In this document: positions 10,452 through 22,052 of the stretch, one piece after another
Layout of the letters: every line of letters starts with the position of its first letter
How positions within the stretch are numbered: position 1 is the first letter of the stretch
From: Escherichia coli
Lineage (GTDB): Bacteria > Pseudomonadota > Gammaproteobacteria > Enterobacterales > Enterobacteriaceae
Length of the DNA: 64,000 nucleotides
Reading direction: 5' to 3' (one strand)
NCBI RefSeq assembly: GCF_003334785.1
Contig: NZ_QOWV01000001.1
The notes under the pieces: generated by a model
The model's input: only the letters and a program-made list of their open reading frames with translations
Told to the model about the DNA's origin: nothing
Database searches by the model: none
Made by a program: the position numbers and the translations under genes

Positions 10452-10465
10452 AACAAAAAACCCAT
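10452..10465. repeat. Left copy of 14-bp direct repeat (putative attL core)
   Basis: aacaaaaaacccat, identical to 22039-22052; lies 16 bp after the rcdA stop. Confidence 0.55.
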
Positions 10466-10480
10466 TTATGTAAACGGGTT
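10453..10480 (-). terminator. Hairpin plus U-tract downstream of int, rebuilt at the attL junction
   Basis: Minus strand reads aacccgtttacataaatgggtt followed by ttttttgtt; about 9-bp stem with one G-U pair. Confidence 0.45.
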
Positions 10481-10484
10481 AATG

Positions 10485-10521
10485 AAAACAATAAGTTAGG
10501 TTAAAAACAATAAGTTAGGTT
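10485..10521. repeat. Tandem 18-bp direct repeat (2 copies, 19-bp period) between attL core and int
   Basis: aaaacaataagttaggtt at 10485-10502 and 10504-10521; candidate arm-type Int/accessory-factor binding sites. Confidence 0.5.
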
Positions 10522-10539
10522 GGTGGTCAGTGGTGGTTA

Positions 10540-11592
10540 TTACGGGGTAATGCCAACCGCTGCCGCCACTTTGTCGCCACTTGGCAGCGTTGCCAGAGGA
10601 TTGAAACGGAGCGCCGTTTCTAGATGATCCGGTGCCAGATGTGCGTAACGCATAGTCATTTTTATATCGTGGTGTCCGAGAATTTTTTGTAAGGCCAGAA
10701 TGTTTCCACCCGACATCATGAAGTGCGCCGCAAACGTATGGCGCAGAACGTGTGTGAGTTGACCGCGAGGGAGCACGATAGACGTTTTTTCCATCACGGA
10801 TAAAAATTGAAAATAGCAGTCTGTGAAGAAATTGAACCCATCAAGCGCCATGATCTCTTCGTAAAGCTCTTTACTGATAGGGATGCTTCTGTTTTTCTTC
10901 CCCTTCGTTCTGACAAAGGTAATTCGGTATTTGGTCACCTGTGAGCGGGTAAGATTTACGGCTTCACGCCAGCGTGCGCCTGTGCTTAAGCATATCTTAA
11001 CTACCAGTGCCAGAATTGGGTCCTGACGTTTGCAATCAGCCAGCAATTCAACAATCTGCTCATGGGTAAGCCATGCCATCTCTTTTTCTGCGATGGTGAA
11101 TTTTCGCATGTTCTCCAGTGGGTTCGGATACGACCATTCGCCCAGACGGGATAGTTCGCTAAAAACACTACTTAGATAGCTTTGCTCCAGGTTAATGGTG
11201 ACCGGGCTTGCTCCTTTCTTCCATTTCTCGCTGAAGTAGATCTCGCCTGTCAGGCGTTTATCTCGATAGTGGGCAAACATTTTAGAGGTGAGATCGGTTG
11301 CAAGAGGATTGCCCAGAGCGTCAACCATCAACAGCAATTTGTCATAGACATGCTGCCCAGCTGTCAGAGATTTACCATGTAGTTTGAACCATAGCTCAAC
11401 CACGTCTTTCAGTGTTCGACGATCCACTGATTCACCCAGCCAGGGCTTTGCTTCGGTTTCTTCCATCGTGTGGCGCTCAAAAGCCAGTGCTTCGCCTTTG
11501 GTGGCGAATTGTTTACGCACACGACGCCCACTTCGTCCGGCGGGGTAACATTCGCAAAGCCATTTCCCTGTGGTTAGTTTTCGTACTGCCAT
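10540..11592 (-). CDS. int: Phage tyrosine integrase
   Basis: 350-aa ORF; C-terminal catalytic region with RHTFAAH and HxxR...Y (LGHHDIKMTMRYAHL) typical of tyrosine recombinases; position next to the att repeat. Confidence 0.9.
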   Translation of the reverse strand: MAVRKLTTGKWLCECYPAGRSGRRVRKQFATKGEALAFERHTMEETEAKPWLGESVDRRTLKDVVELWFKLHGKSLTAGQHVYDKLLLMVDALGNPLATDLTSKMFAHYRDKRLTGEIYFSEKWKKGASPVTINLEQSYLSSVFSELSRLGEWSYPNPLENMRKFTIAEKEMAWLTHEQIVELLADCKRQDPILALVVKICLSTGARWREAVNLTRSQVTKYRITFVRTKGKKNRSIPISKELYEEIMALDGFNFFTDCYFQFLSVMEKTSIVLPRGQLTHVLRHTFAAHFMMSGGNILALQKILGHHDIKMTMRYAHLAPDHLETALRFNPLATLPSGDKVAAAVGITP

Positions 11593-11596
11593 AAAA

Positions 11597-11616
11597 AGCC
11601 CTCATATCAGAGGGCT
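11597..11616 (-). promoter_or_regulatory. Stem-loop immediately upstream of the int start codon; its 3' arm contains the int Shine-Dalgarno
   Basis: Minus strand reads AGCCCTC-TGATAT-GAGGGCT-TTTT-ATG(int); 7-bp GC-rich stem, with GAGGG 6 nt upstream of the ATG. Confidence 0.5.
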
Positions 11617-19900: not shown

Positions 19901-20073
19901 TGCCGCCCGTTTACAGGATTGAGGCACCGACGCAGATCATCATCCAGACGCAGCCAGGACAAAGTGCGCAGGATATTGCGCGGGAGGTGGCCCGCCAGCT
20001 TGATGAACGTGAACGCAGGCTGAAGGCAAAGGCCAGGAGTAACTACAGCGATCAGGGGGGATACGACGCATGA
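16969..20073 (+). pseudogene. In-frame fusion of the replication initiator (gpA-like) N-terminal portion to the tape-measure (gpT-like) C-terminal portion; internal deletion scar
   Basis: 1034-aa ORF. The N-terminal ~470 aa follows dam as gene A does in 186/P2-like phages. The C-terminal ~550 aa is Ala/Gly/Leu-rich with recurring PLA(L/V)LRxGL segments typical of tape-measure proteins and is followed by U and D. Junction is approximate, about 18.2-18.5 kb. Confidence 0.65.
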
Positions 20074-20555
20074 TGATGGTGCTGGGATTGTACGTGTTTA
20101 TGCTGCGCACCGTGCCGTATCAGGAACTGCAGTATCAGCGCAGCTGGCGACATGCGGCTAACAGCCGGGTAAATCGTCGTCCGTCCACGCAGTTTCTGGG
20201 ACCGGACAACGACATGCTGACGCTTTCCGGTGTTCTTATGCCGGAGATAACAGGCGGCAGGCTGTCGTTGCTGGCACTGGAGCAGATGGCAGAACAGGGG
20301 AAAGCATGGCCTCTGATTGAAGGCAGCGGCACGATTTACGGCATGTATGTGATTGAGGGACTGAATCAGACTAAAACGGAGTTTTTCCGCGACGGTATGC
20401 CGCGCCGGATTGAGTTCACCCTGTCGCTCAAACGGGTGGATGAATCCCTGTCCGATATGTTCGGTGATCTCAGTGCGCAGCTGAATAATCTGCAGGGAAC
20501 GGCAACATCAGCCTTAAGCGATATCAGTAAAACGGTGGGAGGGCTTCTGTCGTGA
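20070..20555 (+). CDS. U: P2 gpU-like tail protein
   Basis: 161 aa ([21 protein letters not shown]...); recognised by recall as the gpU family; start overlaps the preceding stop. Confidence 0.75.
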
Positions 20556-21652
20556 ATTTCAGCTCTGAACTGCTTAACAAAGGCAACAAAACTCCGGCAT
20601 TCAGCATCAGTATTGAAGGCAGGGATATCACCACTGTGCTGGACAACCGCCTGATGGGGCTGACGCTGACGGATAACCGGGGATTTGAAGCGGATCAGCT
20701 TGATCTGGAGCTGGACGACGCCGATGGAAAAATCGTGCTGCCGCGCCGTGGTGCGGTCATTACGCTGGCGCTGGGCTGGAAGGGGCAGCCGCTTTTCCCG
20801 AAAGGGGCATTCACGGTGGACGAGATTGAACACACTGGCGCACCGGACCGCCTGACTATCCGGGCGCGAAGTGCTGATTTTCGGGAAACCCTGAATACCC
20901 GCCGTGAAAAATCTTGGCACAAGACCACCGTCGGGGAAGTGGTAAAGGAAATAGCCGCGCGTCACAAGCTGAAGATGGCGCTGGGTAAAGACCTGTCGGA
21001 TAAGCCCGTGGAACATATAGACCAGACTAATGAGAGTGACGGCAGTTTTCTGATGCGGCTGGCGCGACAGTACGGTGCCATCGCGTCGGTGAAAAATGGC
21101 AATCTGCTATTCATCCGGCAGGGGCAGGGCAAAAGCGCCAGTGGTAAACCACTGCCAGTGATCACTATCACACGCAAGGACGGCGACAGTCACCGCTTTA
21201 CCCTGGCAGATCGCGGAGCCTACACGGGCGTAATTGCCAGCTGGTTGCATACCCGCGAACCTGCGAAGAAAGAAAGCACCACGGTGAAGCGTAAGCGCAG
21301 AACTAAGAAGCAGAAGAAAGAGCCAGAAGCGAAGCAGGGCGATTACCTGGTGGGTACGGATGAAAACGTGCTGGTACTTAATCGCACTTATGCCAACCGG
21401 AGCAACGCCGAACGAGCGGCGAAAATGCAGTGGGAACGCCTGCAACGCGGCGTTGCGTCATTCTCGCTACAACTGGCAGAAGGGCGGGCAGATCTCTACA
21501 CGGAAATGCCAGTGAAAGTCAGTGGCTTTAAACAGCCGATAGATGATGCGGAATGGACCATTACGACTCTGACGCATACCGTCAGCCCGGATAACGGTTT
21601 TACGACCAGTCTGGAGCTTGAAGTGAGGATTGATGATTTCGAAATGGAATGA
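20552..21652 (+). CDS. D: P2 gpD-like tail protein (late control gene D family)
   Basis: 366 aa with GTG start overlapping the U stop; recognised by recall; sits between U and ogr as in P2. Confidence 0.75.
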   Translation: MNFSSELLNKGNKTPAFSISIEGRDITTVLDNRLMGLTLTDNRGFEADQLDLELDDADGKIVLPRRGAVITLALGWKGQPLFPKGAFTVDEIEHTGAPDRLTIRARSADFRETLNTRREKSWHKTTVGEVVKEIAARHKLKMALGKDLSDKPVEHIDQTNESDGSFLMRLARQYGAIASVKNGNLLFIRQGQGKSASGKPLPVITITRKDGDSHRFTLADRGAYTGVIASWLHTREPAKKESTTVKRKRRTKKQKKEPEAKQGDYLVGTDENVLVLNRTYANRSNAERAAKMQWERLQRGVASFSLQLAEGRADLYTEMPVKVSGFKQPIDDAEWTITTLTHTVSPDNGFTTSLELEVRIDDFEME

Positions 21653-21742
21653 TTCTTCGCAATGGAGAACTTTTAAGTTTGCAAAATGGAATAATGCGGT
21701 ATCATTATTGTGAATTTAGCAAAAATGGGGAGAACTCGAAAA

Positions 21743-21961
21743 ATGATGATTTGCCCACTGTGTGGAAGTGCCGCCCATACTCGCAGCAGTTTTCAGGTAT
21801 CTTCATTGACCAAAGAGCGTTACAACCAGTGCCAGAACATTAACTGCAGCCATACTTTTGTTACCCATGAAACTTTTGTTCGTTCGATTGCAACGCCAAA
21901 AGAGTCAAATCCGGTTCAGCCGCATCCAATGAAATCAGGACAGGTGGCGCTCTCTCTTTGA
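21743..21961 (+). CDS. ogr: Ogr/Delta-type zinc-finger late-gene activator
   Basis: 72 aa from ATG 21743: MMICPLCGSAAHTRSS...CQNINCSHTF, a CxxC-(22)-CxxxxC zinc motif like P2 Ogr; last phage gene before attR. Confidence 0.8.
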   Translation: MMICPLCGSAAHTRSSFQVSSLTKERYNQCQNINCSHTFVTHETFVRSIATPKESNPVQPHPMKSGQVALSL

Positions 21962-22038
21962 CGCTGCCGCCATTTTGTCGCCATCGTTAAAAAACAGTGT
22001 TTCTAACATCATGATTTTAAACAGCTTAAATTTCAGGC

Positions 22039-22052
22039 AACAAAAAACCCAT
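22039..22052. repeat. Right copy of 14-bp direct repeat (putative attR core)
   Basis: aacaaaaaacccat, identical to 10452-10465. Confidence 0.55.

Follow-up and report, generated by a model that had tools for sequence, protein, structure and literature searches.

Several P2-like prophages are known from a common chromosomal site, described as 'rybB ncRNA' (non-coding RNA) for Rybb*W, Rybb*B and Rybb*Cr of Escherichia coli W, B and Crooks (PMC3032704). PhiECO1 of E. coli HS shares its attachment (att) identity with PhiECO2, PhiECO3 and PhiSEN1 and belongs to the Fels-2 group of P2-like phages, which carry a switch of the coliphage 186 type (PMC3448106). In a separate field, the phage defence protein PD-lambda-1, renamed SNIPE, has been described as a membrane-bound nuclease that cuts phage DNA during injection (bioRxiv 10.1101/2025.11.03.685801). 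These subjects meet in the element at positions 10452-22052 of a 64-kb stretch of E. coli DNA (the window). Taking the explanation as a whole, the element is very probably a defective member of the PhiECO1/Fels-2 group of P2-like prophages (Peduoviridae) that combines a 186-type lysis-lysogeny switch with a SNIPE homologue as cargo. The prophage family, the rybB site and the cargo system are already published and only this particular remnant is new; a recurrent breakpoint in its gene A is the one feature that might be worth further work.

Closest described systems

The nearest intact relative is the ~31.5-kb prophage of E. coli HS (locus L003), which has the same ends as the element and is the published PhiECO1 (NC_009800, 916812-948276): the 14-mer that bounds the element occurs at L003 1813 and 33277, equivalent to the published 916812 and 948276. 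Core, insertion site and gene order agree and shared segments are 96-98% identical, whereas the cI-apl-cII switch segment is only 83% identical and the cI and apl alleles differ. Between cI and int the element has a SNIPE-type gene of 1.7 kb and HS a 63-amino acid (aa) open reading frame (ORF); HS also keeps the 21,156 bp, from the middle of gene A to the middle of gene T, that the element has lost. The insertion site of Rybb*W, Rybb*B and Rybb*Cr is likewise that of the element (PMC3032704), and the REL606 copy has also been degraded by internal deletions, although these are different ones (O'::'K and invertase'::'D); it lacks a SNIPE gene and has a retron in the slot that separates gene A from the portal gene. 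The E. coli B retron was considered as cargo of the int-cI slot and rejected, as it sits in the gene A/portal slot.

Coliphage 186 (Eganvirus ev186) resembles the element in its leftward cI and int, rightward apl-cII-fil, TraR-like gene, rolling-circle replicase A and T-U-D-B/ogr right end, and differs in having its attB in tRNA-Ile (ileY) rather than rybB and in lacking both dam and a SNIPE gene. Protein identities to 186 (BLAST) are 70% for CII, 68% for TraR, 60% for Fil, 56% for Int and for D, 54% for Ogr/B, 51% for U/F and 32% for CI; Apl gave no BLAST match to 186 Apl. These values and the PHROG matches place the switch in the 186 type, and RefSeq copies that are 99.9% identical are annotated likewise. 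The element is not of the 186 immunity type or an Eganvirus, as CI and Apl have diverged and the att site lies in rybB, not ileY. An initial annotation of this DNA had proposed a P2/186-like prophage with a 186-type immunity region; the PHROG matches, the HS prophage and the 186 identities bear out the first proposal, and the second holds for the architecture but not for the specificity, which differs from that of 186 because CI is only 32% identical and Apl has no BLAST match.

Attachment sites and the rybB target

The features that define the two ends of the element are listed below.

9899..10435, plus strand: rcdA, host left flank (identical sequence annotated rcdA in RefSeq loci L001 and L002; TetR-family matches)
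10452..10465: attL core, 14 bp (exact 14-mer; left flank as in the empty site, right flank the phage P' arm as in attP)
10459..10480, minus strand: hybrid Rho-independent terminator downstream of int (terminator scan; RNA fold -9 kcal/mol, z = -2.2)
10562..10579, plus strand: predicted P' arm-type Int binding repeats GCCGCCACTTTGTCGCCA, inside the 3' end of int (motif search)
21966..21983, plus strand: predicted P arm-type Int binding repeats GCCGCCATTTTGTCGCCA (motif search)
22039..22052: attR core, 14 bp, the last 14 nucleotides (nt) of rybB (exact 14-mer, empty-site match, Rfam)
22039..22117, minus strand: rybB small RNA (sRNA) gene, complete (Rfam RF00110, model 1-79/79)
22197..23882, minus strand: ybjL, host right flank (NF003440, 1178 bits; RefSeq annotation on identical sequence)

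The element arose when its tyrosine integrase recombined the 14-bp core of attP with the identical 14 nt at the end of rybB, which lies between rcdA and ybjL; the initial annotation had named these two flanks correctly. The core, AACAAAAAACCCAT, is found at 10452-10465 and 22039-22052 with no third copy in the 64 kb even when one mismatch is allowed, and the block of identity at the element ends is exactly 14 bp, the flanks diverging on both sides. All four sites, attB, attP, attL and attR, were recovered and are mutually consistent. The empty site was compared in one genome, NZ_AP021891 (L001), where the 14-mer occurs once and its flanks are exchanged in the predicted way: the 60 bases to the left of the core are identical to those left of attL and the 70 bases to the right to those right of attR. 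In about two-thirds of the listed genomes (an evenly spaced sample; 5,423 matching E. coli genomes) rcdA directly adjoins ybjL. The phage-form site comes from two tandem double lysogens, in which the internal ogr-int junction contains a single core with the left arm of attR and the right arm of attL. The same core bounds the prophages of HS, EC05 and PSJ-16.

The repeat itself, being short, A/T-rich and of low complexity, could be thought a coincidence or a target-site duplication of the transposition type with no recombinase core. The probability of this is close to nil: the shuffle expectation is 0.03 and two matches occurred in 0 of 100 shuffles, an empty site and an attP with the same core and exchanged arms refute it, and the core bounds related prophages at a site that is already published. 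The exact repeat, its uniqueness in the window and its origin as an att core duplicated by site-specific integration thus stand as first proposed.

The two double lysogens, at rybB in L007 (FDAARGOS_1248) and L008 (CFSAN061772), first looked like small elements and were recognized as tandem copies with an attP-type ogr-int segment between them, after which they served as the source of attP.

The 14-mer had been expected to lie, at the empty site, between the rcdA stop and a ybjL terminator. The single copy is there, but it lies within the 3' end of rybB, and the sequence at the right junction taken for a ybjL terminator is that sRNA gene. The Rfam match scores 105.3 bits against a gathering threshold of 40 and covers the full model; the empty site gives an identical match, with the core as its last 14 nt. 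The terminator of RybB folds with -24 kcal/mol and, because the Rfam RybB ends at the core, the core corresponds to part of the 3' arm of the terminator stem plus the U-tail. Integration therefore leaves rybB complete at attR. At the other end the attL core supplies a U-tract that completes a phage-encoded hairpin, giving a terminator for int. No transfer RNA (tRNA) gene was found near the att site in a search of the window; here the 3' end of an sRNA gene serves as att site in the same manner as tRNA genes do.

The predicted arm sites are consistent with this arrangement. The paired repeat GCCGCCAYTTTGTCGCCA has only two occurrences in the 64 kb, one lying 97 bp inward of attL and the other 56 bp inward of attR, with 0 expected, and the arm repeats match the arm-site consensus published for 186-type integrases, tgccGCCActt (PMC3448106).

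A 21-kb deletion and the A::T fusion

Alignment to the HS prophage is collinear with a single gap, L003 8353-29508, so that 21,156 bp are absent from the element. Window position 18270 corresponds to L003 8352 in gene A and position 18271 to L003 29509 in the tape-measure gene T (a slash marks the junction here and below):

16969..20073, plus strand: chimeric ORF, 1034 aa, joining codons 1-434 of replication endonuclease A to codons 426-1025 of T in frame (L003 alignment)
18269..18272: deletion junction, A ...GCGGGTG/ACGAAGG... T (HS alignment; 2-nt microhomology TG)

As judged from the alignment, a single 21,156-bp deletion, which followed integration, accounts for the small size of the element. 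The cut falls immediately 5' of the HUH motif AEPHHDGTVHWH, and the gap takes in everything further downstream in gene A, including the HUH/tyrosine catalytic half and a P2-like ori sequence at about HS codon 672. It also contains a DinI-like gene (whose 186 counterpart is the Tum antirepressor), a cargo slot, the portal, terminase, capsid, lysis, baseplate, fibre, sheath and tube genes, and T codons 1-425. A replicase A with HUH motif and internal ori is thus missing, gene A being cut after codon 434, which makes the element defective and is no argument against its descent from the PhiECO1/Fels-2 group. The head, lysis and tail blocks and cos are gone as well, as had been proposed for the lysis, capsid and most tail genes; the C-terminal part of T, U, D and ogr are left. 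In 186 and P2, cos lies beside the portal gene, downstream of gene A, and the corresponding segment is inside the gap. On the right of the junction a tape-measure domain match covers residues 420-576 of the chimeric ORF, and the GC content over 18500-21500 is 55-60%.

Reduction to this size could also be the mark of a functional satellite or mini-element that depends on a P2-like helper phage for mobilization and packaging, and the retention of int, apl and both att sites with their arm sites, together with an ogr that could cross-talk with a helper, would suit such an element. Yet the whole cos-containing segment lies in the 21.2-kb gap, as do the catalytic half of the replicase and ori; moreover, the left arm (10452-18270) differs from PSJ-16, where gene A is intact, at only 4 of 7,819 nt (99.9% identity), and the junction is private to one strain. 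Since relatives with an intact gene A are this close, the junction is private and cos and ori are lost, recent decay of a prophage is indicated rather than an evolved satellite, which we consider very improbable.

Retained genes and the switch

Outside the deletion the element retains a coherent set of genes:

10540..11592, minus strand: tyrosine integrase, 350 aa, intact (phrog_1, E = 6e-75; 56% to 186 Int; no internal stops)
11597..11616, minus strand: terminator-like hairpin between the cargo gene and int (7-bp stem, 5 GC pairs, T-run; scan)
11675..13351, minus strand: SNIPE/PD-lambda-1 homologue, 558 aa, between cI and int (PADLOC PD-Lambda-1, E = 2.4e-120; GC ~36%)
13372..13968, minus strand: cI repressor, 198 aa, intact (phrog_4; 32% to 186 CI; RefSeq 'phage repressor protein CI')
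13947..14013: switch region (pR-like promoter, TTGACA at 13962-13967 and TAGTAT at 13985-13990; three TTGGGTAC half-sites)
14064..14285, plus strand: apl/cox-like excisionase-repressor, 73 aa (phrog_575 'Cox-like excisionase and repressor', E = 3e-31)
14318..14827, plus strand: cII, 169 aa (phrog_101; 70% to 186 CII)
14835..15131, plus strand: fil, cell-division inhibitor, 98 aa (phrog_32377; 60% to 186 Fil)
15249..16118, plus strand: DUF5347, DUF2732 and TraR/DksA-like genes (phrog_602, phrog_128, phrog_54)
15891-16118, plus strand: TraR/DksA (phrog; 68% to 186 TraR)
16115..16972, plus strand: dam, DNA adenine methylase, 285 aa (TIGR00571, 318 bits)
20070..20555, plus strand: gpU-like tail gene, 161 aa (51% to 186 F; length as in HS)
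20552..21652, plus strand: gpD-like tail/late control gene, 366 aa (56% to 186 D; annotated in relatives)
21743..21961, plus strand: ogr/B-type late-gene activator, 72 aa (NF007241 match; 54% to 186 B)

The integrase, repressor, TraR, Dam, tail and ogr genes named by the initial annotation are all present, as supported by ORFs and by PHROG and hidden Markov model matches. The ORFs from int to dam are open, in agreement with the proposal that the lysogeny genes, cargo gene included, are intact, and U, D and ogr have their full length. In the switch region the pR-like promoter (TTGACA-17-TAGTAT) points rightward, overlaps the start of cI and matches at 10 of 12 positions in the promoter scan. 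All three TTGGGTAC half-sites of the window fall within this region, two of them forming the 16-bp palindrome GTACCCAATTGGGTAC, and they are candidate operators.

A segment of ~245 bp at 15004-15249, absent from the HS and EC05 copies, lengthens fil to 98 aa and adds an overlapping 74-aa ORF (phrog_4312); the arrangement is shared with PSJ-16.

The cargo gene lies in a stretch where the GC content drops to ~36% (12000-13500). Its product combines, in one protein, the domain set of SNIPE: a hydrophobic N-terminus predicted to be a membrane anchor, DUF4041 and a T5orf172/MUG113 nuclease of the GIY-YIG type (Pfam). The RefSeq name is 'SNIPE associated domain-containing protein'. In comparison with SNIPE (bioRxiv 10.1101/2025.11.03.685801), the homologue has a longer N-terminal region, the PADLOC alignment starting at residue 106. 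The same cargo occurs in the intact phages KP12 and vB_EcoM-813R9; 'Klebsiella phage KP12' had been considered as a carrier of the deletion and was rejected, being an intact phage-form genome.

Proposed working of the remnant

In the proposed scheme CI would be made from a leftward lysogenic promoter and would repress the rightward early operon, which runs from apl as far as the A::T fusion. The SNIPE homologue and, to some extent, int would be transcribed leftward together with cI, and the homologue would act as a membrane-anchored nuclease cutting incoming phage DNA and so protect the cell. With cI and the SNIPE homologue on one transcript, the remnant may therefore be regarded as a fixed immunity-plus-defence cassette. 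Growth, packaging and lysis would not be expected, because replicase, ori, cos and structural genes are missing, and the element by itself is probably not inducible by the SOS response, because the antirepressor has been lost. Excision as a non-replicating circle is possible in principle, since Int and Apl are intact, as are the two cores and the two arm sites, and it could take place if repression were lifted, for instance by a related phage residing in the same cell. The element would thus be a further domesticated prophage, its dangerous functions gone and its repressor, integrase and anti-phage nuclease kept.

Several points weigh against this reading. No leftward promoter equivalent to pL was located by the consensus scan, and expression of the lysogenic operon is itself a prediction from sequence. 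The hairpin at 11597-11616 might limit expression of int or uncouple it from the cI-cargo transcript. That the cargo confers defence, as is expected of SNIPE towards siphoviruses, is predicted by homology, as is its target range, and the loss of inducibility is argued by analogy with 186 Tum, the DinI-like gene being only the presumed antirepressor. Concerning the deletion, the A::T junction was found in none of 5,426 complete E. coli genomes, and its support outside the window is one NCBI protein record, P0002.

This scarcity, together with a contig look-up for the window's fusion protein that returned no match, would be expected if the junction were an assembly artefact and the strain carried an intact prophage of ~32 kb. 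Such an error is nevertheless highly unlikely: the 2-nt microhomology is far shorter than any assembler k-mer, P0002, one NCBI record in a two-member cluster, is the identical fusion protein on a 690-kb contig, and complete genomes such as those of EC05, REL606 and PSJ-16 contain analogous junctions.

A recurrent breakpoint in gene A

The break in gene A falls after one and the same base (codon 434, nt 1302, ...GCGGGTG/) in four elements, at window position 18270, L002 (EC05) 9722, L012 3496 and L133 7064, and in each of them gene A is joined to a different partner, in frame and with 2-3 nt of microhomology. The partners and their native contexts are as follows.

Window: T codon 426, gaTG/ACG
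EC05: LysC codon 27, gaGTG/ACG
IMG/VR contig L012: GpE codon 21, gcTG/ACC
L133: baseplate J codon 18, atGTG/CCG

The L133 element, located beside smpB (smpB-ssrA locus), is not the same prophage: its integrase and repressor are different ones. The gene A fragments (A') of the window, EC05 and L133 differ pairwise by 46-58 nt of 1,302, while the fragment of the window is 1 nt from an intact gene A; L012 was left out of this comparison because an indel offset its alignment. Given this divergence and the separate locus of L133, at least three of the events (window, EC05 and L133) are independent. The EC05 junction type is found in one complete genome and that of L133 in none. Viral contigs contain at least 120 intact copies of the gene A site and one broken copy, and a scan of metagenome contigs found no break at this base.

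The wider family, relatives of the element, has many chimeric ORFs derived from internal deletions (P0001-P0231), surveyed at the protein level, where only in-frame events are seen. Other endpoints are reused in this survey as well, namely gene A codons 304, 342-348 and 425-427, T codons 433-439 and 715-716, and lysozyme codon 54. By a rough estimate subject to uneven detection, ~24 distinct gene A events give ~8 pairs within one codon vs ~1.4 expected. It is tentatively suggested, with the balance of our judgement somewhat against it, that decay is non-random and that a few exact positions, chiefly the one after gene A codon 434, are preferred DNA ends that become joined, by 2-3 nt of microhomology, to many different sites downstream. 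If so, the replicase gene would be broken at specific sites or would contain a fixed end of a nascent strand; these prophages could then be disarmed time and again by this route while their immunity and defence genes stay, and the inactivation of prophages in E. coli would be in part a deterministic process.

Other causes of the shared position were considered. A single ancestral deletion was rejected for at least three events by the divergence of the A' fragments and the smpB-ssrA location of L133, and long direct repeats by the perfect microhomology of only 2-3 nt. The rolling-circle origin does not coincide with the break: P2 is nicked at codon 620 and the ori-like sequence here is at the homologous codon ~672, not at 434. 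Comparison by eye with consensus sequences gave no convincing fit to a gyrase cleavage site, to Chi-like octamers, to the boundary of a group II intron or to a deletion adjacent to an insertion sequence (IS).

The T endpoint of the window (codon 426) adjoins the T433-439 cluster.

Other decayed relatives

Further copies of the family have decayed in other ways. The PSJ-16 copy carries an O'::'D fusion, the EC596 copy joins gene A codon 544 to the lysB/lysC region, and the EC05 copy combines several deletions with an IS5 element. The last is seen within the tail-gene remnant of EC05 (L002, 10799-13204), which harbours an IS5-like ISKpn26 and a SIR2-family gene; the latter would be a second cargo or defence-like insertion in the same prophage family. 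The protein P0001 (1058 aa, Logan contig) is an in-frame chimera of three parts, gene A codons 1-427, a fragment of the N-terminal domain of a serine invertase and T from about codon 440, a structure that points to at least two successive deletions in one prophage.

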